Shown here: one piece after another, positions 2,410 through 21,468 of the stretch
Layout: each line of letters begins with the position of its first letter
How positions within the stretch are numbered: position 1 is the first letter of the stretch
Source of the DNA: Actinomycetes bacterium KLBMP 9797
GTDB taxonomy: Bacteria > Actinomycetota > Actinomycetes > Mycobacteriales > Micromonosporaceae
Direction of reading: 5' to 3'
Assembly: GCA_037414955.1 (NCBI GenBank)
Contig: JBBEWH010000028.1
Span: 26,429-50,428, forward strand
DNA: 24,000 bases
Position numbers and translations under genes: made by a program
Notes under the pieces: generated by a model
The model's database searches: none
The model's input: only the letters and a program-made list of their open reading frames with translations
Told to the model about the DNA's origin: nothing

Positions 2410-2937
2410 ATGACGCAGCGCGACCAAGCGCTGGCGATGGCCGCGCGGCTGATGGCCATCGACTGGCGGGGAAGCGACGAGCGCACCCGCTCTCGCGTTG
2501 TCTTGATGCGAGAGTATCTTCGGCGAGCGGCATGGTGGGCACAGCGGGTCGGTCATCCAGAGCTGTGGCCCTTCTTCGACATCGCCACATATGTCGATGC
2601 CGGCGTACGGGCTGACCCAGCGCTTGTCAAGAAGGTCGAAGACGCGCTGAACGAAGTAGGCTCGTGGTCGGACGTGAGGCTGACCTGTCTGTGGGCGCTG
2701 CACTGGGCGGCTTTGCGAGATGCGTCGGGTGTCGTCCTACCCGAGCTCGATGATCCGTTTGAGCCGCTGATTCGCATGTATGAGCGCGGTGGCGGCTTCT
2801 GTGAAGAGCACGTATTCATAGATGTCGATCGAGCTGGCATTCCGCGCAGGACGTTGCTCGACCATCGCTCCGCCAAGCCGGTGGCGCAGCTTGACGACGC
2901 GTGGCTGGATGGGCTCGACAGTGGAATGTCGTCGTGA
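2410..2937 (+). CDS. Hypothetical protein in the low-G+C cassette (possible orphan immunity/accessory gene)
   Basis: ORF track 2290..2937 (TTG). I prefer ATG 2410 (or GTG 2407), preceded by GGAG at 2397-2400, because the upstream 40 codons run through an intergenic repeat motif. I recognise no family motif. Confidence 0.5.
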   Translation: MTQRDQALAMAARLMAIDWRGSDERTRSRVVLMREYLRRAAWWAQRVGHPELWPFFDIATYVDAGVRADPALVKKVEDALNEVGSWSDVRLTCLWALHWAALRDASGVVLPELDDPFEPLIRMYERGGGFCEEHVFIDVDRAGIPRRTLLDHRSAKPVAQLDDAWLDGLDSGMSS

Positions 2938-3003
2938 AGACCCAGGCAACTGCGCGAGAATTGCCATATCCGGTGGGGCTGGCGCGCGGAAGATCCACAC
3001 AAC
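2936..3003 (+). repeat. Post-stop intergenic motif, copy 2, plus a third partial copy
   Basis: GAAGACCCAGGCAACTGCGCGAGAATTGCCATATCC (2936-2971) overlaps stop 2935-2937. GAAGATCCACACAAC (2989-2003 region, exactly 2989-3003) matches the first 15 nt of copy 1 with one mismatch. Confidence 0.7.
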
Positions 3004-3108
3004 TTGTTAAAAGTTGGGGTGTCCCTGGGCTGTGTACACCCCAAGTTCCTAAAAGTTGTACTGATCTTGGTGGACCTGGTCAGCAGGACGGCGTGGATCC
3101 GGGAGGAG

Positions 3109-3168
3109 CCCATGATCAGGGCGTCCCTCAAGTTGTTCTAACGACTTGAGGGACGCCCTGATCATGGG
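3109..3168. repeat. Palindromic element A1: perfect 25-bp inverted repeat with a 10-nt loop
   Basis: CCCATGATCAGGGCGTCCCTCAAGT (3109-3133) / TGTTCTAACG / ACTTGAGGGACGCCCTGATCATGGG (3144-3168). The 3' arm contains GAGGGA, then 10 nt, then ATG 3164. Confidence 0.95.
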
Positions 3169-4288
3169 GTGGTTACTGGAGGGGGTGAGTGGGGGCGTGG
3201 GGGAGCGGGTGGCTTGGGCCGTTGATCTGCCGGAGGCGGATGACGGGGAGTTGGTCGCCACCGCGGACGGTGGTGTGGTGGTGTCCACGCGGCGGTTTCT
3301 CGCCGCGGTGACCCCGGCTGGACAAGTCGCCTGGCTGGTTGACGCTGGTGTGGGGCTGTTGGGCTCGCCGGTGTTGCTGCCCAGCGGTCGGGTGGTGCGC
3401 GCCGAAGACGGGCTTCTCGTGACCCGGGACCTGGCGACCGGTGCCTCGGTGGGCAGCGTGACGGCGACCGGGCTGTCGGCGGTGGCGGCGACGCCCGACG
3501 GTGACCTGCTGATCGTGGCGCGGACGCCCGAGCGCGAGCCGGTGCTGCGCCGGCTGTCGCCGGGTGGCGCGGTGCAGTGGACGCGGCGGTTGGACGATGC
3601 TTTCGCGTCGTTGGTGGTCGCGGGGGACGCGGTGGTGGTCGCGGATCGCGGGGCGCTGCGCGGGTACGACCTGTCGGGCGCGCCGCGGTGGTTTGCGGGC
3701 GGGCACGGGTTCGGGTTGCCGCCCGCGCCGAGGCGGAGCGCCGCGCCGGTGGCGCGCGGTCCGCTGGTCGCGCTGCCGGGCGGGCGGGTGCTGGCTGAGC
3801 TGGCGGAGCCCGACGGGTACGGCTGGCACGTGTTCGATCCGGGCGCCGACACGGTGACGCGGGTGGACTCGCCGGTCGGCATGCACCATCCGGTAACCGC
3901 CGTGCCAGGGGGCGCCGAGGACGGCGGGGTGCTGTTGGCCGCTGTGGGGCCGGCCGAGGAGGTCGAGGAGGGGCGGCAGCGGTCGAGCGTGGTGTTGGCC
4001 GAGTTGTCCGGCGCCGTGCGGTGGTCGCATCCCGTGTCCGCGGAGCCGCGGGCGTTGCTCCCGGGCGGCGCCGGCACGGTGGTCGTGGTGTGCAGTCCGG
4101 GGCTCGACCGGTGGCAGAAGTACCACCACTGGTACGACCTTTCGGGCGAGTGCTTCGTCCGGTGCGTCGGCGCGGCTGGCGAGCAGCGGTGGACCTGGCC
4201 GGCGCCGGTGCCGCTCACGTATCGGGCGGCGGCGAGCGGGGATACGACGTATGTGGCGGCGCCCGGCCGGCTGTGGGCCCTGCGGTGA
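3164..4288 (+). CDS. Hypothetical protein with PQQ/BamB-like beta-propeller-type repeats (tentative)
   Basis: ORF track 3146..4288 (TTG). In-frame ATG 3164 sits inside the 3' arm of palindromic element A1, with GAGGGA 10 nt upstream. A G-x-x-x-W blade-like motif recurs every ~60-70 aa: AGQVAWLVDAG, GGAVQWTRRLDD, SGAPRWFAGG, SGAVRWSHPV, GEQRWTWPAP. The start is uncertain because GTG alternatives exist downstream. Codon 4 is a rare TTA (3173-3175). Confidence 0.55.
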   Translation: MGWLLEGVSGGVGERVAWAVDLPEADDGELVATADGGVVVSTRRFLAAVTPAGQVAWLVDAGVGLLGSPVLLPSGRVVRAEDGLLVTRDLATGASVGSVTATGLSAVAATPDGDLLIVARTPEREPVLRRLSPGGAVQWTRRLDDAFASLVVAGDAVVVADRGALRGYDLSGAPRWFAGGHGFGLPPAPRRSAAPVARGPLVALPGGRVLAELAEPDGYGWHVFDPGADTVTRVDSPVGMHHPVTAVPGGAEDGGVLLAAVGPAEEVEEGRQRSSVVLAELSGAVRWSHPVSAEPRALLPGGAGTVVVVCSPGLDRWQKYHHWYDLSGECFVRCVGAAGEQRWTWPAPVPLTYRAAASGDTTYVAAPGRLWALR

Positions 4289-4291
4289 CGG

Positions 4292-4353
4292 CCCATGATC
4301 GAGGCGTCCCTCAAGTAGCTATAACGACTACAAGGACGCCTTGATCATGAGGG
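4292..4353. repeat. Palindromic element A2 (imperfect copy)
   Basis: CATGATCGAGGCGTCC (4294-4309) pairs with GGACGCCTTGATCATG (4334-4349), with one G-T (G-U) position. The inner CTCAAGTAG..CTACAAG part pairs only partially. It starts 4 nt after the stop at 4286-4288. Confidence 0.9.
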
Positions 4354-4364
4354 GAGGTGGATTG

Positions 4365-5510
4365 ATGGCTGAGGCTCGCACGGTCGCTGAGGCGTACGCG
4401 TACCTGGAGTTGACCTTGCCACCCGGGGAGTCCTGGGTGGACTACGAGAAGTACACCACCCTGGACGCGGGACCGGACGGCGGCTATGTGCTGCGGTTCG
4501 ACGGGTGGTACGAGGGCGAGCGGCACCGGCTCGACGTGCCGGTCGTGGCGCGGGAGGGCCGGTCGACGCTGATCGACGCGGGGCAGTGGCACCTGCTGGA
4601 GGACGCGTACGCCGGGATGGCCGCCACCGGCGAGGAGCAGCTGGCGGGTGCCGCGCCGGACGACGAGACGTACCGGGCGATCGTGGGCGCGTGGGACGGC
4701 GCCGCGACGGCGGCGGCGGAGATCGAGTTGTTCCTGCCCGAGGGGGCGGACGAGCCCGCCGGCGAGGCGTTCTGGACCGCCGCGGGTCGCGGGGTGCGGG
4801 AGCACCGGCCGGAGGCGTTCGGGCGGGCGCGGCTCGCGGCGGCCCGCGCCGAGTACACGCGCCGCCGGGACGAGTTCGTCGCCCGGTACGGGATGGCCGC
4901 CGAGGAGACGGCGGGGGAGACCACCGCGGCTGAGCCGGTGCGGGCGGCGCGCACCTACGGCGAGGCGCACACCTTCATGGATCTACACCCGTGCGAGTGC
5001 GGTTCGGCCGCGTTCCCGCGCGGGCAGCTGGCGGTGCTCGGCAGCGACGACCACGGGGTCACGGTGCGGTTCGCCGGCCGGTGCGACGACTGCGACCGGT
5101 CGCGCGCGTTCGTGTTCCGGCTGCCGCCGCGTCCGGGTGTGCCGGCGGAGTCGCCGTATCTGTTCGGGTATCCGGAGGACGGGCCGTCGGAGCTGCTCGA
5201 CGCCGGCGAGTGGTTCGGTGTCGCCGAAGGCTACGCGGCGGTCGCCGACCTGGCCGTGGCGGAGGTGGACAGCGGCGACCAGGAGGACGTGGTCAAGCTG
5301 CTCACCTGCGCCGCGAGCGCCGTCGACGAGGTGCTGCGGTTCCTTCCGGCGGGCGCGGACGTGCTGCCGGCGGGCGCGCTGTGGACCGCGGCGAGTCGCG
5401 AGGGGTACGCGCGCGACCCGGCGCGGTTCCGGCGGGCGTCGCTGGAGCAGTGGCGGGCCGAGCGGTGGCGCCGGCTCGCCGAGTACGCGGGGCGTGGGGA
5501 ATCACCGTGA
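4365..5510 (+). CDS. Two-domain protein: a Cys-less degenerate copy followed by an intact copy of an uncharacterised CxxC...CxxC domain
   Basis: ORF track 4341..5510. ATG 4365 follows GGAGG (4353-4357) at good spacing. The C-terminal half reads RTYGEAHTFMDLHPCECG...GRCDDCDRSRAFVFRLP...PSELLDAGEW...VLRFLPAGAD..P..ALWTAASR. The N-terminal half aligns to it (RTVAEAYAYLELTLPPGES...GWYEGERHRLDVPVV...STLIDAGQW...IELFLPEGAD..AGEAFWTAAGR), but all four Cys are replaced. Confidence 0.7.
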   Translation: MAEARTVAEAYAYLELTLPPGESWVDYEKYTTLDAGPDGGYVLRFDGWYEGERHRLDVPVVAREGRSTLIDAGQWHLLEDAYAGMAATGEEQLAGAAPDDETYRAIVGAWDGAATAAAEIELFLPEGADEPAGEAFWTAAGRGVREHRPEAFGRARLAAARAEYTRRRDEFVARYGMAAEETAGETTAAEPVRAARTYGEAHTFMDLHPCECGSAAFPRGQLAVLGSDDHGVTVRFAGRCDDCDRSRAFVFRLPPRPGVPAESPYLFGYPEDGPSELLDAGEWFGVAEGYAAVADLAVAEVDSGDQEDVVKLLTCAASAVDEVLRFLPAGADVLPAGALWTAASREGYARDPARFRRASLEQWRAERWRRLAEYAGRGESP

Positions 5511-5511
5511 C

Positions 5512-5530
5512 GGACGCCTTGATCATGGGG
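5512..5530. repeat. Solo 3' arm of the palindromic element (A3)
   Basis: GGACGCCTTGATCATGGGG begins 2 nt after stop 5508-5510. I see no matching 5' arm upstream. Confidence 0.8.
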
Positions 5531-6133
5531 AGGGGCGCGGTGGAAGGTGAGCTGGACGCTATGGTCGGTGGCATGGCGGCGCCGCTGGCACGTACCCATG
5601 AAGAGGCTCACCTCTACATGGAGCTGCATCCGTGTCCGGCGTGCGGCGAGCCGGAGTTCGACGCGGCGAGCGCGGTCCGCGAGACGGACGCCGGGTGGCT
5701 GGTCCGGTACGCGGGCGTGTGTGTCCAGTGTGGACGCGCGCGGGCCTTCGAGTTCCGCCAGCCCGACGAGATGCGGCCGCCGGCCGAGGGTGCGTGGGCG
5801 TCCGGTGCCGAGCCGTCCGAGTTGCTCGACGCGGGGGAGTGGCTGTTCGTGGCCGACACCTATGCCAGCGCGCCGGCCGGGGCCGATTCGGGAGCGTCCA
5901 TAGTAGACCTGCGATCGGCGGCGGCCGCGCTGGACGAGGTGCTCAAGTTCCTGCCGGACGGGGCCGCCGCGCTTCCCGACGAGGCGTTCTGGTCCGCGCG
6001 CGGCCGGGCGGTGCGCGCCGCCGAGCCGGGGCGCTTCAGTCGCGTCCGGCTGCTGGCCGCCCGCGCGACCTACGCCCGACTGCTCGCGAGCGCCCATGAT
6101 CAAGGCGTCCCGGTAGTCGCTAGAACGACATGA
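5525..6133 (+). CDS. Single-domain member of the CxxC...CxxC family
   Basis: In-frame part of ORF 4991..6133. Motifs: RTHEEAHLYMELHPCPACG...GVCVQCGRARAFEFRQP...PSELLDAGEW...VLKFLPDGAAALPDEAFWSARGR. ATG 5525 lies in a solo 3' arm of the palindromic element. ATG 5561 or 5573 are alternative starts, and 5573 best matches the N-terminus of the paralogue at 7560. The last 13 codons (SAHDQGVPVVARTT) are read from element A4. Confidence 0.65.
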   Translation: MGRGAVEGELDAMVGGMAAPLARTHEEAHLYMELHPCPACGEPEFDAASAVRETDAGWLVRYAGVCVQCGRARAFEFRQPDEMRPPAEGAWASGAEPSELLDAGEWLFVADTYASAPAGADSGASIVDLRSAAAALDEVLKFLPDGAAALPDEAFWSARGRAVRAAEPGRFSRVRLLAARATYARLLASAHDQGVPVVARTT

Positions 6134-6152
6134 AGGACGCCTTGATCATGGA
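6093..6152. repeat. Palindromic element A4 (outer arms perfect over 17 bp, core degenerate)
   Basis: CCATGATCAAGGCGTCC (6094-6110) pairs with GGACGCCTTGATCATGG (6135-6151). The core is CGGTAGTCGCTAGAACGACATGAA. Confidence 0.9.
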
Positions 6153-6636
6153 GAGACTGACAGCGGACGAGATCACCGAGGTTGCCGGCGCGCTCGCCGG
6201 GCTGTCCTGGTCGTGGACGGTCGACGACCTGGACCGGCTGGTCGACGGGTTCGGCTGGCCGATCGCGGCCGGTCCGAGCGTGGGCGGCGCCGTCCTGCAG
6301 ACCGGTCTGGCGCCGCACCACGGCTTCGCCGACGTGCGGTTCGACGGCGGGGCGGTGGGCGCCATCGTGGTACGGGTCACCGACGGCTCGCCCGAGGCGA
6401 CCGACCCGCGGCGGGACGCGTTCGCCGCGGCGGTGACGGCGGTGACCGGGGTGGCCGGCCCGCCGACCGAGCGCCGGCCCGGGCCGGCGCCCGAGGTGCG
6501 CTGGCGGGTGCCGTCCGGCGTGCTGCGGGTCACGGACGACGGCGTGTTCGTCGAGCTCGCGCTGCTCTCCGAGGCGCACGCGGCGCTGATCGACGAGGCC
6601 GACAGCGACCAGGATGATGGCGAGGACGACTGGTGA
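6148..6636 (+). CDS. Hypothetical protein with an acidic C-terminal tail
   Basis: ORF track 6130..6636. ATG 6130 overlaps the previous stop (ATGA). ATG 6148 lies inside the 3' arm of element A4, with GAAGGA 10 nt upstream, and gives MERLTADEITEV... High GC3. The tail is DEADSDQDDGEDDW. No family recognised with confidence. Confidence 0.6.
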   Translation: MERLTADEITEVAGALAGLSWSWTVDDLDRLVDGFGWPIAAGPSVGGAVLQTGLAPHHGFADVRFDGGAVGAIVVRVTDGSPEATDPRRDAFAAAVTAVTGVAGPPTERRPGPAPEVRWRVPSGVLRVTDDGVFVELALLSEAHAALIDEADSDQDDGEDDW

Positions 6637-7559: not shown

Positions 7560-8111
7560 ATGGTGTTGCCGGTCGTCCGGACCCGGGACGAGGCTCATCT
7601 GTACATGGATTTGCGCCCGTGCGAGCGGTGCGGCAGCGCGGAGATCACCTGGCAGAGCCAGCTCACCCACGACGGCGGCGTGCCGGCGCGGCGCTACCAC
7701 GGCACGTGCGCGGGGTGCGGCGCGGCGCGCGAGTTCGTGTTCCGGCTGCCGGAGCGGCCGGCGGTGCCCGGCGACGACGGGGTGTTCTTCGGCGGCCCGG
7801 AGCCGTCGCAGCTGCTCGACGCGGGCGAGTGGCGGCTGATCGCCGACCTGGGCGTGCGGGAGGGTTCGGCGCCGCGCACCGGCGATCCGGCCGACGACGC
7901 CGAGCGCCAGCGGGCGTTCGCGCTCGCGCTGGCGGCGATGGATGAGATCATCAAGTTCATCCCGGACGGCGCGGACGGGGTGCCGGAGTCGGCGTTCTGG
8001 ACCGCGCGTGGGCGCGCCGAGTACGACCGGAACCCGGCCTCGTTCACCCGGGCGCGTCTCGAGATCTGGCGCGACACGTTCCGGGACGAGATGGAGATGC
8101 GGTTCGGATGA
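7560..8111 (+). CDS. Single-domain member of the CxxC...CxxC family
   Basis: ATG 7560 lies 3 nt after the upstream TAG and is preceded by GGTGGAGGA. Motifs: RTRDEAHLYMDLRPCERCG...GTCAGCGAAREFVFRLP...PSQLLDAGEW...IIKFIPDGADGVPESAFWTARGR. Confidence 0.75.
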   Translation: MVLPVVRTRDEAHLYMDLRPCERCGSAEITWQSQLTHDGGVPARRYHGTCAGCGAAREFVFRLPERPAVPGDDGVFFGGPEPSQLLDAGEWRLIADLGVREGSAPRTGDPADDAERQRAFALALAAMDEIIKFIPDGADGVPESAFWTARGRAEYDRNPASFTRARLEIWRDTFRDEMEMRFG

Positions 8112-9007: not shown

Positions 9008-9070
9008 CAGCAATGTCGGGGACATTGCTGCCTCCTGGGTCCGGGATGCAGCAATGTCCCCGACATTGCG
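9008..9070. repeat. Inverted pair of a self-complementary motif, GCAATGTC(GGG/CCC)GACATTGC
   Basis: CAGCAATGTCGGGGACATTGCTGC (9008-9031) and GCAGCAATGTCCCCGACATTGCG (9048-9070) are reverse complements of each other. Each is also an 8-bp stem with a 3-nt loop. The pair lies ~90-150 nt upstream of the start of the membrane-protein gene at 8916. Confidence 0.85.
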
Positions 9071-9099: not shown

Positions 9100-9206
9100 G
9101 CGGCCGCGCGCCTGCGGCGTGGGCCTGCGCGTGCCCGCGGCGCGCGCCTGCGCGGCCTCGTTCGCCGATCAAGGGCTGGGGCACGTGGTTCGATCTTGCG
9201 CGAACC

Positions 9207-9265
9207 CTCAGCGGTACCACACGCACGTTATGGGTGCCGGATGACGTGCGTGTGGTACCGCTGAG
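9207..9265. repeat. Perfect 22-bp inverted repeat with a 15-nt loop
   Basis: CTCAGCGGTACCACACGCACGT (9207-9228) / TATGGGTGCCGGATG / ACGTGCGTGTGGTACCGCTGAG (9244-9265). It is flanked by GATCAAGGG (9167-9175) and CTCTTGATCAAG (9274-9285). It lies ~190 nt downstream of the stop at 9457, so it may be a terminator or part of a small mobile element. Confidence 0.85.
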
Positions 9266-9456
9266 CACGATGCCTCTTGATCAAGCCAACCCGTGGCGGG
9301 TCACGGGCCGCGGTCGAGCTGCGCCGACCTCCGGACGGCGCGAAGCGGCCAGGGCTTCTCGATCGACGGGAGAGAGCCGTGCTCTTGGCCGGAGCGTGCA
9401 CGGGCCCATCGGTTCACCTGCGAGTGCGGGGAGGCGATAGTGGCGTTGCCGGCTGG

Positions 9457-11160
9457 TCAGATCTGGGAGAGGGCGGCTAGTTCGGCGCGGCGGGCCGCCG
9501 GGACGACGCCGAAGAGTTCGCCCTCCACCGTGGCCCGGGCATGGGCGTTGGCGACCACGAGCGCCCAGACCGGCGCCGTCACGTCCGCGAGCCGGCTGAC
9601 CCGGCGGGCCGCACCCGGCCCGTCGGTCTCGTCCGGTGCGGGGCGCGCCAACCGGGCCCAGGCGCCGGCCGGCGTGGCCCACAGCGGGGACGCGTCGTCG
9701 ACGAGCGTGTCGGCCGGCCCGGCGCCCTGGGCGGCGAGCAGCGCCGCGCACACCGACTGCGGGTCGTCGATCCCGAGCGCTCGCACGGTCTCGATGCCCA
9801 CCCGCCAGGCGACCAGGAAGTCGGGCCAGGTCTCCGTGGACAGTCGCGCCGCGTACCGCTCGGTCGCCGCCCGCAGGATCGGCCCGGCCATCGCGCGCAC
9901 CGTGGGCGGGGCGGTGAGGGCCAGCCCGTCGGGTACCGGTGGCCGGCCCTCGGGGCACCAGCCGGGCGGCAACGGGTACGCCCGGCGGTGCGCGATGTGC
10001 GCGCTGAGCGGGAGGCCGGCGAGATCCGTGGGGTAGACGTCGCGGGTGACCCGGTCGACGATCCAGCCCGGCTCGCGGGGCGGTGGACCGGCCATCCCGC
10101 CCGGCTCCGGCACCGGCGGGCCCATCGGCGTGATCGCCTCCGGCGGCGCGTCCCAGCGGACCTGGTAGACCAGCTCGGTGCCGGTGACGACGTAGCCGGT
10201 CTCCGGGCGGCCGGCCACCCACATGGTGTAGGCCCCGAACCGCGCCGGCCGGGCCCGCACCAGCGCGATCGCCTCCGCCGGGCTACCGACCGGCGCGACC
10301 GCGGCGTCCCACGACGGCGCGGCGTCCCACGACGGCGCGGCGCCCCGCGACGGCGCGGCGCCCTGCGACGGCGCGGCGTCCCACGACGGGGCGGCGCCCC
10401 ATGACGGCGCGGCGCCCGCGTCCCACGACCGGGCGCCCTCCGACGACGGGGCGGCCGCGTCCCACGACGGGGCGGGTTGCGACGACGGCGCGGCCTCCCG
10501 CGACGGCGCGGGCGCTGGCTCCGGTCGTGGTGGGGGCAGCAGACCATCGGGTACGCCGGGCGCCAGCAGGGCGATCTCGGCGCCGTCCAGGGGGCGGGGG
10601 AGCAGCAGTGGCAGCGGCGGCGGGAACCTCTGCCGCTCGGCGTGGATGTCGGCGCCGGCGGCCCGCGCGTGCAGCACGGCACCGCGCAGCAACGGCGGGA
10701 GCGCGGCGAGCTGCCGCAGATGAGGCGGCATCGCCGAGGCCGGCGGCGGGTCGGCGAGCGGCGCCGGCGGCGGGTCGCCGGCGCGGCGGTGGGTGCGCGC
10801 CTCGACCGGGATCATCGCGAGCAGCATCGCCGTCGCCCAGTCCAGCGGCCGCCGTTCGGCGAGGAGCGCCGTGCGCGCGCTGGTGCCGTCGTACCAGGGC
10901 AGCGCCACCGCGGCGGCGAGCAGCTCCGGGTCGGCGCACTCCTTCGCCAGCGCGGTCGCGGTGGTCACGCCGATCCGGAGGCGGGCCCGCATCAGCTCGC
11001 CCTCCCAGGCCGGGTCGGGCGGCGGCACCGGCGGCAGCGGTGGGCGCGGCTGCGCCGGCCGGAGCAGGTCCAGCACGAGCGCGTCGAAGTCGTCCCGCGC
11101 GGCGCGGGGGAACACCTTGCGCAGCTGGCGACCGGCGTCCGCCCACGCCCTCAGGACCAC
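9457..11160 (-). CDS. Pro/Ala-rich multidomain hypothetical protein with an internal hexapeptide tandem repeat
   Basis: In-frame part of ORF 9457..11595. GTG 11160 overlaps the stop of the upstream gene (GTGGTCCTGA). Upstream of that point the long ORF overlaps the real SUKH-3 gene in another frame and is Arg-rich. High GC3. It contains (AAPSWD)-type repeats and a YrhB-like stretch (PGWIVDRVTRDVYPTD). The start is uncertain; ATG MRARLRIGV is an alternative. Confidence 0.55.
   Translation of the reverse strand: MVLRAWADAGRQLRKVFPRAARDDFDALVLDLLRPAQPRPPLPPVPPPDPAWEGELMRARLRIGVTTATALAKECADPELLAAAVALPWYDGTSARTALLAERRPLDWATAMLLAMIPVEARTHRRAGDPPPAPLADPPPASAMPPHLRQLAALPPLLRGAVLHARAAGADIHAERQRFPPPLPLLLPRPLDGAEIALLAPGVPDGLLPPPRPEPAPAPSREAAPSSQPAPSWDAAAPSSEGARSWDAGAAPSWGAAPSWDAAPSQGAAPSRGAAPSWDAAPSWDAAVAPVGSPAEAIALVRARPARFGAYTMWVAGRPETGYVVTGTELVYQVRWDAPPEAITPMGPPVPEPGGMAGPPPREPGWIVDRVTRDVYPTDLAGLPLSAHIAHRRAYPLPPGWCPEGRPPVPDGLALTAPPTVRAMAGPILRAATERYAARLSTETWPDFLVAWRVGIETVRALGIDDPQSVCAALLAAQGAGPADTLVDDASPLWATPAGAWARLARPAPDETDGPGAARRVSRLADVTAPVWALVVANAHARATVEGELFGVVPAARRAELAALSQI
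10303..10513. repeat. 18-bp tandem repeat (six in-phase units, then degenerate units) inside the CDS at 9457..11160
   Basis: Units of GGCG(T/C)CCC(A/G)(C/T)GACGG(C/G)GC lie at 10303, 10321, 10339, 10357, 10375 and 10393, then continue with 3-6-nt indels to ~10513. On the minus strand they encode AAPSWD/GAAPSR-type hexapeptides. Confidence 0.9.
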
Positions 11161-13136: not shown

Positions 13137-14384
13137 ATGCGGGTACGGGCGGCGGCCGCCGGCCTGGCAGCGGTCTGCGCCGCCGCGGCCGCGTGGCACG
13201 GACCGGCGCCGGCGGTGGCGGCGCCGCGGTGTGCCGATCCCGGCCAGGAGATCGCGGAGGTCCCCTGGCACCAGCGGATGTTGGCGCCGGAGCGGATCTG
13301 GCCGTTCGCCCGGGGCAACCAGCTCGTCGTCGCGGTGCTCGACACCGGGGTCGACGCCCGCCACCCCCAGCTGGGTGACCGGGTGCTCGCCGGGTTCGAC
13401 GCGGTTCGCAACAGCGGGACCGGCAACACCGACTGTCTCGGCACCGGCACCCAGGTGGCGGGCGTGATCGCCGCCCAGCAGACCAGGGGGATCGGGTTCG
13501 TCGGGATGGCGCCGAACGCCCGGATCCTGCCCGTCAAGGTGCTCCCCGACGAGGGGGCCACCGACCGCATCGCCCAGCCCCAGATCCTGGCCCGCGGCAT
13601 CACGGCGGCGGTGGACCGGGGGGCCCGGGTGATCGTGTGCTCGGTCGTCACGTACACCGACAGCCCCGCGCTCGAGGCCGCGGTCGCCGGCGCCGTCCAG
13701 AAAGGCGCGGTGATCGTCGCGGCCGTGGGTGACGAGGGCAACCGCGACGACGGCGGCCCGACGCCGTACCCGGCGGCCTACGACGGCGTGGTCGGCGTCG
13801 GCGCGATCGGGCAGCAGGGCGTCCGCTGGCCGAACTCGCAAATCGGTGGGTACGTCGATGTGGTGGCCCCCGGTGCTGACGTGGTCACGCTCCAGCGCGC
13901 CAGCGGCATGACGACCGTGCGGGGCGGCACCGGCGTGGCCGCCGGTTTCGTCGGGGCCGCCGCGGCGCTGACTCGCGTACGCCGGCCCAACCTCGACCCG
14001 GCCGCGGTCCGCTACGTGCTGCAGGCCACCGCGATCGGCGGGACCAACCCGAACGAGTACGGGCAGGGCGTCATCAACCCGTACGCGGCGGTGACCGACC
14101 AGATCACGGCGGTGAGCCCGGCGCCGTTGCCGGCCGCGGAGCGCCCGTCCATCGAGGAGTCGCCCACCTGGCTGCGCAGCCGTAACCTGGCGCTGATCGG
14201 CGCCGGCGCGGCGGTGCTGGTGGTGCTGATCGTGCTGGCCGTGGCGGTCGCGCTGCCCCGGGGGCGGCGCCGCTTCTGGCGACCGGCGGTGGCGGCGAGC
14301 CCCGTGGACCGCCCCGAGGACGACGAGCCCGCTCCGCCAGCGCTCCTCTTCGACCAGCGGACGCAAGGAAGGGCCCCTTACTAA
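13137..14384 (+). CDS. mycP: Mycosin (MycP)-like subtilase homologue lacking the catalytic His and Ser (predicted pseudo-protease)
   Basis: ORF track 13038..14384. ATG 13137 follows GGGGAGGGGA and gives a signal-peptide-like N-terminus (MRVRAAAAGLAAVCAAAAAW). Subtilase Asp box VAVLDTGVD is present (GAC 13341-13343). The His box reads DCLGTGTQVAGVIAA where mycosins have DCxGHGTxVAG (Thr codon 13443-13445). The Ser box reads GGTGVAAGFVGAAAAL where GTSxAAPxVSG is expected (Gly codon 13932-13934). A C-terminal TM anchor (LALIGAGAAVLVVLIVLAVAVAL) is followed by RGRRR, as is typical of mycosins. Confidence 0.8.
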   Translation: MRVRAAAAGLAAVCAAAAAWHGPAPAVAAPRCADPGQEIAEVPWHQRMLAPERIWPFARGNQLVVAVLDTGVDARHPQLGDRVLAGFDAVRNSGTGNTDCLGTGTQVAGVIAAQQTRGIGFVGMAPNARILPVKVLPDEGATDRIAQPQILARGITAAVDRGARVIVCSVVTYTDSPALEAAVAGAVQKGAVIVAAVGDEGNRDDGGPTPYPAAYDGVVGVGAIGQQGVRWPNSQIGGYVDVVAPGADVVTLQRASGMTTVRGGTGVAAGFVGAAAALTRVRRPNLDPAAVRYVLQATAIGGTNPNEYGQGVINPYAAVTDQITAVSPAPLPAAERPSIEESPTWLRSRNLALIGAGAAVLVVLIVLAVAVALPRGRRRFWRPAVAASPVDRPEDDEPAPPALLFDQRTQGRAPY

Positions 14385-14481
14385 CACCCCTGATAGTGAG
14401 GAAGGGTCCCTTGCAATCGCCTCGCGCAAGGAAGGGCCCCTTGTTAACACCGCGCGGTGTTAACAAGGGGCCCTTCCTTGC
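14363..14481. repeat. Second repeat family (B): three direct copies and one inverted copy of GCAAGGAAGGGCCCCTT between convergent mycP and eccB
   Basis: Copies lie at 14363-14379 (inside the last codons of mycP), 14398-14414 (variant GAGGAAGGGTCCCTTGC), and 14426-14451. The inverted partner at 14456-14481 forms a perfect 26-bp stem (GCAAGGAAGGGCCCCTTGTTAACACC / GCGC / GGTGTTAACAAGGGGCCCTTCCTTGC). Confidence 0.9.
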
Positions 14482-21407: not shown

Positions 21408-21468
21408 CCCGTGATCAGGGCGTCCTTCAAGTAGTTCTCAACTACTTGAAGGACGCCCTGATCACGGG
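21408..21468. repeat. Palindromic element A5: perfect 29-bp inverted repeat with a 3-nt loop, immediately after eccC
   Basis: CCCGTGATCAGGGCGTCCTTCAAGTAGTT (21408-21436) / CTC / AACTACTTGAAGGACGCCCTGATCACGGG (21440-21468). It starts 3 nt after the eccC TAA (21403-21405) and probably also acts as a terminator. Confidence 0.95.

Follow-up and report, generated by a model that had tools for sequence, protein, structure and literature searches.

A stretch of 24,000 nucleotides of Actinomycetes bacterium KLBMP 9797 (GenBank assembly GCA_037414955.1, contig JBBEWH010000028.1, positions 26,429 to 50,428 of the forward strand, hereafter the window) contains an array of same-strand genes whose junctions carry palindromic elements of about 60 bp. 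This raises the question of whether the elements belong to the genes, as devices supplying the Shine–Dalgarno sequence (SD) and start codon of whatever follows them, or to a repeat that settled between them. The initial annotation of the window had taken the former view: four copies, here called A1 to A4, were each proposed to form in the transcript a hairpin hiding the ribosome-binding site and the start codon of the next gene. We find that this mechanism applies to a single junction and is not a general property of the family. The elements are probably members of a dispersed, non-coding family of near-perfect 56-nt palindromes of Micromonosporaceae, similar to the repetitive extragenic palindromic (REP) sequences and REPINs or to miniature inverted-repeat transposable elements (MITEs).

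A dispersed family of 56-nt palindromes

The four elements were confirmed in place by a repeat finder, by counts of the arm motif and by a profile search (Table 1). The arm motif GGACGCCYTGATCAYG occurs nine times in the window, whose G+C content is 72.6%, against 0.06 occurrences expected from shuffled sequences. The repeat finder gave 29-nt arms for A1 (3109-3137 and 3140-3168) that are 97% complementary, and the solo arm A3 was recovered at 5501-5527 by the nhmmer profile of the family (E = 0.002). The count of four was too low: a fifth copy, A5 (CGTGATCA...TGATCACG), had been missed. It begins 2 nt past the stop codon of eccC (TAA 21403-21405) and lies 114 nt ahead of the annotated start of the SARP regulator gene. 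It ends in GATCACG and contains no ATG; a start codon is therefore no fixed feature of the element.

Table 1. Positions of the palindromic copies and of the genes beside them, in window numbering unless another sequence is named.
Feature	Position	Strand	Description	Core or start codon	Further details
A1	3109-3168		full palindrome, head of the array	family core 3111-3166	profile score 69 bits
A2	4292-4353		full imperfect palindrome	family core 4294-4349	profile score 55 bits; repeat finder 4291-4352
A3	5512-5530	+	solo 3' arm
A4	6093-6152		full palindrome	family core 6095-6150	repeat finder 6092-6153
A5	21408-21468		perfect palindrome, 29-nt arms, 100% complementary		found by the repeat finder
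Gene 1	3209-4288	+	PQQ/BamB-like beta-propeller	annotated start GTG 3209	359 aa, MEJ3743601.1
Gene 2	4365-5510	+	domain CxxC...ELLDAGEW...FLP, twice	start ATG 4365	381 aa, MEJ3743602.1
Gene 3	5540-6133	+	paralogue of gene 2	annotated start GTG 5540	197 aa, MEJ3743603.1
DUF6301 gene	6148-6636	+	DUF6301 protein	start ATG 6148	162 aa, identical NCBI protein (100%)
SARP gene (3' of A5)			SARP regulator	annotated start ATG 21582	MEJ3743616.1; no element ATG
Histidine-kinase copy	L034:1738-1793 (Phytohabitans aurantiacus, NZ_BSDI01000076.1)		copy in frame in a HisKA_3 gene

Beyond the window, a scan of reference genomes with the full-element pattern returned at least 36 loci. Among the matches listed, at least 29 loci on about 24 contigs belong to Phytohabitans aurantiacus, and the others to two Micromonospora strains and to Catenuloplanes japonicus; soil metagenome contigs provided six further copies. 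The pattern had no match in viral contigs, nor had the consensus any in PLSDB plasmids, and nothing points to carriage by a phage or plasmid. The copies are near-identical (55-72 bits to one profile), with the 56-nt consensus CGTGATCAGGGCGTCCCTCAAGTCG-TTAGAG-CGACTTGAGGGACGCCCTGATCACG, in which the half-site blocks TGATCA and GGCGTCC are invariant. Their boundaries are sharp, with C-R-TGATCA at the start and TGATCA-Y-G at the end, and positions beyond -3 are unconserved. The flanks are unrelated in sequence and share no motif, and the genes around the copies are housekeeping genes unrelated to one another: 80 flanking proteins match 118 Pfam families (mraY/ftsW, ABC and MFS transporters and dehydrogenases among them), one copy lying between mraY and ftsW, within a core operon. 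The stop codon that commonly precedes a copy was considered as a part of the element and rejected, its distance and the intervening sequence being variable. Rfam gave no match at its gathering thresholds, and in e-value mode only sub-threshold hits to generic miRNA-precursor hairpin models; no description was found in the literature on this sequence, on repeats of Micromonosporaceae or on actinobacterial REP, MITE or REP-associated tyrosine transposase (RAYT) elements. As far as Rfam and the searchable literature indicate, the family thus appears to be previously undescribed.

To place the copies with respect to genes, we used a gene call based on the G+C content of third codon positions (GC3), with the element-free intergenic regions of the same loci as control. 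Copies were found at 20 convergent, 14 same-strand and 1 divergent intergenic sites, against 32, 114 and 32 sites without a copy, respectively, which amounts to an excess in convergent settings (57% of the copies, 20/35; Fisher p = 5e-6) and a deficit in divergent ones (p = 0.02). The nearest stop codon typically lies -5 to +23 nt from the element, and in about a quarter of the cases the TGA of the terminal TGATCA is itself the stop of a gene. Where both neighbours are on the same strand, the upstream stop is nearer than the next start in 13 of 14 instances (p = 0.002), the starts being 2-665 nt away. This positional bias is the opposite of the bias toward gene starts implied by the proposed function, and a preference for 3' ends and convergent sites is already known from families of repeated stem-loops, among them REP, Bor, Ype and Efa (PMC1590033). 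With respect to transcription, the asymmetric loop (TTAGAG or CTCTAA) can point either way, at 12:4 in same-strand settings outside the window, and the window copies all have the loop orientation other than that of the outside majority.

The two arms have changed in concert. Across 51 copies, 12 of the 25 pairs are changed on both sides and 94.8% of the cells are paired, a level reached by none of 500 shuffles and approached by no slid register; a single diverged copy (L023 7835) carries four double changes. The compensation between arms that had been noticed in the array is real. Maintained pairing cannot, however, tell an RNA hairpin from a DNA hairpin. The case for RNA had been made from a supposedly single uncompensated position in A2, a G opposite T that would be a G-U wobble only in the sense of the genes. 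A2 in fact has five unpaired positions (G-T, C-A, C-C, A-A and A-G), one of which, the C-A, is of the wrong sense, and the G-T and A-C mismatches of the family number 16 and 13 on the top strand overall, the corresponding G-U and A-C counts in the transcript sense of same-strand copies being 5 and 8 (small numbers). There is no excess of G-U, and the RNA-sense argument therefore fails. A recurrent G-G/C-C mismatch at pair 19 tracks the orientation of the loop, and this linkage fits the copying of whole elements from variant masters.

If transcribed, the full copies would all fold into very stable hairpins, as had been proposed, with predicted energies on the plus strand of -62, -37, -39 and -58 kcal/mol for A1, A2, A4 and A5, respectively (z = -3.4 to -13.9). 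The minus strand of the full copies is predicted to fold equally stably, and the proposal does not extend to the solo arm A3, which has no significant RNA structure (z = -0.6). As for intrinsic (Rho-independent) termination, the hairpin is present and the U tract after the stem is absent: no position of the G-rich 3' flank has more than 10 of 43 T, and a terminator scan flagged no element.

The composition of the flanks was also recorded for all copies (window and L001-L047). Over 10-30 nt, the 5' side is C-rich and the 3' side G-rich (about 50-55%), in both loop orientations. Complementarity of the flanks, as in a longer stem, is not copy-specific (3.40 matches observed, 3.40 in the control). 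An asymmetric extension of the element was rejected, since loop-oriented copies keep the same C-rich/G-rich bias on their flanks.

Gene starts at the array junctions

The elements of the array had been described as beginning 2-4 nt after the upstream stop or overlapping it. This is correct for A2, which sets in 3 nt past the stop of gene 1 (TGA 4286-4288), and for A4, which overlaps the end of gene 3, but not for A1, which starts 171 nt 3' of the stop of the preceding open reading frame (ORF), ending at 2937. This 171-nt gap holds an AT-richer, imperfect 33-nt inverted repeat (2990-3068; 76% complementary, 13-nt spacer) that includes CAACTTGTTAAAAGTTG / CAAGTTCCTAAAAGTTG and could be either the array's promoter or operator region or the remnant of a palindromic element.

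All four array copies carry an ATG in the 3' arm (3164, 4347, 5525 and 6148), and each ATG is, as the initial annotation had it, in frame with the downstream ORF; no stop intervenes. The end that provides it, GATCATG, is a minority variant, found in 8-12 of 42 arm ends; most copies end in GATCAC. For genes 1, 2 and 3, these ATGs are not the annotated starts, which lie 15-45 nt further 3' (from 3164 to 3209, that is, 45 nt, for gene 1, from 4347 to 4365 for gene 2 and from 5525 to 5540 for gene 3), and each of the three genes has its own GGAGG-type SD just 3' of the element. An orthologous array of about 90% nucleotide identity and different gene content, found on two metagenome contigs (L037 and L038), agrees with these starts. 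There, the homology with gene 2 sets in exactly at the ATG equivalent to 4365, with nothing element-like upstream, and the 43-nt segment containing the solo arm A3 is missing between gene 2 and gene 3. Two of the three array junctions (5' of gene 2 and gene 2/gene 3) are clearly without an element on these contigs, and the gene 3/DUF6301 junction is remodelled and possibly holds a decayed copy.

It is at this last junction that the element does supply a gene start. The DUF6301 gene is the only one of the four downstream genes whose start codon sits in an element, in the 3' arm of A4. Its usable starts are ATG 6130 and ATG 6148, both inside A4 and the second annotated by NCBI, and no alternative in-frame start exists 3' of 6148 ahead of the domain. 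A4 also encodes the final 13 codons and the stop (TGA 6131-6133) of gene 3, whose product ends in AHDQGVPVVARTT (...LLASAHDQGVPVVARTT) where the orthologue ends in ...LLGGVRG; the N-terminus of the DUF6301 protein, MERLTADEIT..., is likewise unlike that of its orthologue as far as LTxDEIT. Given that both termini differ from those of the orthologues, A4 rewrote both gene ends. ATG 6130 and the stop of gene 3 overlap as ATGA (6130-6133). Ribosomes translating gene 3 pass through the 5' arm up to the stop at 6131-6133; on terminating there, they would unfold the hairpin and might start anew at 6130 or 6148, so that translational coupling from gene 3 to the DUF6301 gene, at that junction alone, may reasonably be inferred from the sequence.

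Empty sites, an in-frame insertion and other palindromes

Copies are present or absent at orthologous sites in close relatives. A5 is missing after eccC in three of them (L039-L041), whose EccC proteins are 85-88% identical; the closest, L039, has CACTAACCCCC in common with the window up to the insertion point and differs thereafter. A site outside the window is that of the copy in a histidine-kinase gene of Phytohabitans aurantiacus (Table 1), which falls in the linker joining the dimerisation domain to the ATPase domain, its sole stop-free frame reading ...VIRASLKSLQRLEGRPDH... The insertion amounts to 66 nt of DNA and 22 added residues (...NDLPPNVIRASLKSLQRLEGRPDHEE...), and it is lacking in two orthologues (L048 and L049) that are 93-94% identical. 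The gene is annotated as intact by NCBI (P0127), with a GC3 of 0.86-0.96 in the same frame on both sides of the copy. The comparison of filled and empty site at this gene reveals no target-site duplication, and neither a target duplication nor a TGATCA target was seen at the empty sites. The one protein retrieved in a search for the peptide that the element encodes was repetitive and unrelated.

At the same syntenic locus in the relative L048, in the gap between the permease and histidine-kinase genes (2813-3001), a centrally deleted copy of the family (CCGTGATCAGGGCGTC joined to TTGAGGGACGCCCTGATCACG) adjoins a palindrome of a second family, a site that shows decay by central deletion and stacking of palindrome families. 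Central deletions and solo arms such as A3 are the decay products expected of long palindromes. The second family (CGATCAAGGGCGAATGCACG...) has ends similar to those of the family studied here; these GATCAAGGGCG-like ends hint at a common recognition sequence. The gap between the mycosin gene and eccB differs among relatives, with a copy of the studied family in L039, two palindromes of another kind in the window and no more than 12 nt in L041. The pair in the window belongs to the family GCAAGGAAGGGCCCCTTGTTAACACCGCGCGGTGTTAACAAGGGGCCCTTCCTTGC and fills this convergent gap with one perfect 56-nt copy and one degenerate copy (14363-14414 and 14426-14481). Further long palindromes of the window lie at 9207-9265 and 9010-9069, with 29- and 26-nt arms; the former is apparently nested in a further, degenerate palindrome at about 9172-9290, which belongs to a third family (CGATCAAGGGC...CTCTTGATCAAG). 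This third family, whose ends resemble those of the studied one, also occurs in L010, L019, L027, L034, L039 and L048. No parent insertion sequence with the same ends was noticed in the retrieved loci, no search having been aimed at one.

The window as a whole is a locus for type VII (ESX-type) secretion in an actinomycete resembling Micromonosporaceae. It comprises EccB, EccC and EccD, a mycosin, an RHS protein and the SARP regulator, besides a YwqJ-type deaminase toxin accompanied by a SUKH-3 immunity gene. The array itself (3.2-8.1 kb) encodes the PQQ/BamB-like propeller, three paralogues, the DUF6301 protein and a TY-Chap3 chaperone-like protein, a set that suggests accessory, immunity or chaperone functions; its junctions at 6633/6636 and 7556/7560 have no element. 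The three paralogues (4365-5510, 5540-6133 and 7560-8111) are defined by a domain in which two CxxC pairs precede ELLDAGEW...FLP(D/E)GA...FW and for which we found no Pfam or NCBIfam family and only a weak zinc-finger match; they presumably serve the toxin system of type VII secretion as immunity or accessory proteins. An 18-nt tandem repeat of about 11 copies (10300-10511; consensus CGCGGCGTCCCACGACGG, 73% matches) lies within long overlapping ORFs beside the SUKH-3 gene and would encode a low-complexity repetitive protein segment.

Nature of the elements and competing explanations

The arrangement had been regarded as unlike any described class. Its anatomy and distribution are those of REP/MITE-like stem-loop repeats (PMC1590033). 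As with REPs and REPINs, we are dealing with short extragenic palindromes, dispersed in high copy number, lying near stops or between convergent genes in either orientation, forming stable hairpins in 3' untranslated regions and falling into lineage-specific subfamilies, and the whole 56-nt palindrome has the size of a REPIN doublet. The differences are that there is no sequence similarity, that the arms are longer and more perfect (25-29 bp), that the host is a high-GC actinomycete, that the conserved ends are C-R-TGATCA instead of a GTAG-type 5' tetranucleotide and that no RAYT is linked to the family among the top 25 flanking-protein families listed. REP hairpins shield the upstream mRNA from 3' exonucleases and, when within about 15 nt of a stop codon, can lower translation of the upstream gene. 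From MITEs, the family has the terminal inverted repeats, trivially so, as the whole element is one inverted repeat of 25 paired positions, and the presence/absence polymorphism at orthologous sites, but not the flanking target-site duplication. The Correia/NEMIS elements of Neisseria and the ERIC/IRU elements of enterobacteria are likewise non-autonomous inverted repeats at gene junctions, co-transcribed with their neighbours; their long hairpins are cleaved by RNase III or RNase E, and the elements can provide neighbouring genes with expression signals, as A4 does here. Their length of 100-150 bp includes distinct internal regions, and Correia elements duplicate a TA target, whereas here the whole element is the inverted repeat. 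The histidine-kinase copy, with its 22 extra residues, recalls Rickettsia palindromic elements, which can enter coding genes in frame and be translated as a short additional peptide; the present family differs in offering one such case, in being mostly intergenic, and in being shorter and unrelated in sequence. Finally, the mycobacterial interspersed repetitive unit (MIRU), another actinobacterial intergenic operon repeat, spans the stop codon of the gene before it and the start codon of the gene after it, as A4 does; MIRUs are tandem direct repeats rather than palindromes, and this overlap is a family property there and a one-off here.

Could the array copies still be portable cassette boundaries, each 3' arm giving the next gene its SD and start codon while the hairpin gates translation? 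The four in-frame ATGs, the confinement of the DUF6301 start to two codons within A4, the ATGA overlap at the end of gene 3, which suits coupling of termination and reinitiation, and the stops that the element holds in all three frames in its array orientation would speak for it. Yet the annotated starts of genes 1 to 3 have better SDs than the element ATGs, the orthologous array uses the same starts without elements, an ATG is missing from A5 and from most of the family, the majority of copies have no gene start after them and no G-U excess is seen, all of which makes a cassette function very unlikely. A different proposal would keep the mobile palindrome and have it still active, targeted to or retained past stop codons and domesticated as a junction module in the toxin/immunity islands of the type VII locus. 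It would then stop read-through in three frames, make coupling between gene 3 and the DUF6301 gene hairpin-dependent and allow cassettes to be duplicated, lost and shuffled by recombination between copies; the solo arm, the TT variant of A2, A3 and A4 and the differing genes of the orthologous array would fit, and we nonetheless hold such domestication to be quite unlikely. Recombination sites of the integron attC type, assembling immunity-gene cassettes, were suggested by the length of the imperfect palindromes, their place between same-strand, promoterless-looking genes, the solo arm and the gene content that sets the array apart from its orthologue. The ends (CRTGATCA/TGATCAYG) are not RYYYAAC/GTTRRRY, no integrase is found among the scanned proteins of the window, copies elsewhere are mostly single, between housekeeping genes and often convergent, and the two element-free junctions lie within the array itself, so that an attC-like role is barely conceivable.

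The positional bias invites yet another explanation, a selected, host-functional hairpin at gene 3' ends, acting as a bidirectional terminator or mRNA stabiliser rather than as selfish DNA. Besides the strong bias to convergent sites and to the first 20 nt or so past stops, many convergent pairs would be only 0-40 nt apart if the element were removed, and the double changes maintain pairing. Such a module is unlikely, given that no T/U tract follows the stem and the 3' flank is G-rich, that one copy lies within an apparently intact histidine-kinase gene and another between mraY and ftsW in a core operon, and that orthologous sites of close relatives have no copy. Perfect dyad symmetry, the invariant TGATCA and GGCGTCC half-site blocks and a strand-neutral mismatch pattern could also be those of a DNA site bound by a dimeric protein, an operator or a nucleoid-organising site. 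The 56 bp with paired changes along the whole arm far exceed the length of an operator, divergent, promoter-bearing regions have almost no copies (1/35), the neighbours are functionally unrelated and one insertion is coding and in frame, which leaves this explanation highly improbable. Both the attC and the operator readings were rejected on the end motifs and the distribution.

A dispersed, REP/REPIN- or MITE-like palindrome family remains the reading we consider probable, and several points weigh against it. No target-site duplication is found at the clean insertion, and active transposition is for that reason only inferred; no transposase, whether of the RAYT type (the Y1 HUH transposase of REPs) or another, is linked to the family among the top 25 flanking-protein families listed; and the covariation of the arms may also mean selection for function. 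That all four copies of the array have the minority ATG variant, each in frame with the ORF that follows and with no stop in between, is mildly unexpected (about 1 in 27 if independent), and it could reflect local selection or alternative upstream starts instead of shared descent. The C-rich and G-rich flanks could in turn stem from a target preference, from a loose extension of the stem or from the composition of sequences past stops.

For this palindrome family, we propose that the element spread, or was spread, through the chromosome and that purifying selection then shaped its distribution. A hairpin of -40 to -60 kcal/mol would be tolerated just past stops, above all between convergent genes, and, rarely, in frame in a tolerant protein linker, and not in promoters or 5' leaders. 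Once transcribed, the 25-29-bp duplex would be a barrier to 3' exonucleases, a substrate for a double-strand RNase, possibly RNase III, and a block to read-through translation; these RNA-level effects are likely to be generic by-products and not a dedicated translation-initiation device. The array copies probably lie at junctions because junctions are short and weakly constrained and because gene-plus-arm units were locally duplicated. The latter would explain 4.5 copies in 3 kb and is probable in view of the GGACGCCTTGATCATG variant common to A2, the solo arm and A4 and of the paralogy of genes 2 and 3. A4 would have been co-opted incidentally when it took the place of the last part of gene 3 and of the first part of the DUF6301 gene; translation of the latter probably depends on ribosomes completing gene 3 and opening the hairpin.

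The element is of an ordinary kind, although the family is new to the literature searched, and it does not overturn current understanding. For annotation of these genomes, it implies that a conserved-looking ATG and purine block immediately upstream of a gene may be part of a repeat and not a start, as for three of the four genes considered here. The family may also provide strain-typing markers and natural, very stable hairpins for studies of mRNA 3'-end processing in actinomycetes. Taken together, our results add a seemingly undescribed family of long palindromes, and at least two sister families, to the REP/MITE-like catalogue of high-GC actinomycetes, with concrete effects of the former on proteins: two gene ends rewritten at a single junction and 22 residues added to the linker of a histidine kinase.

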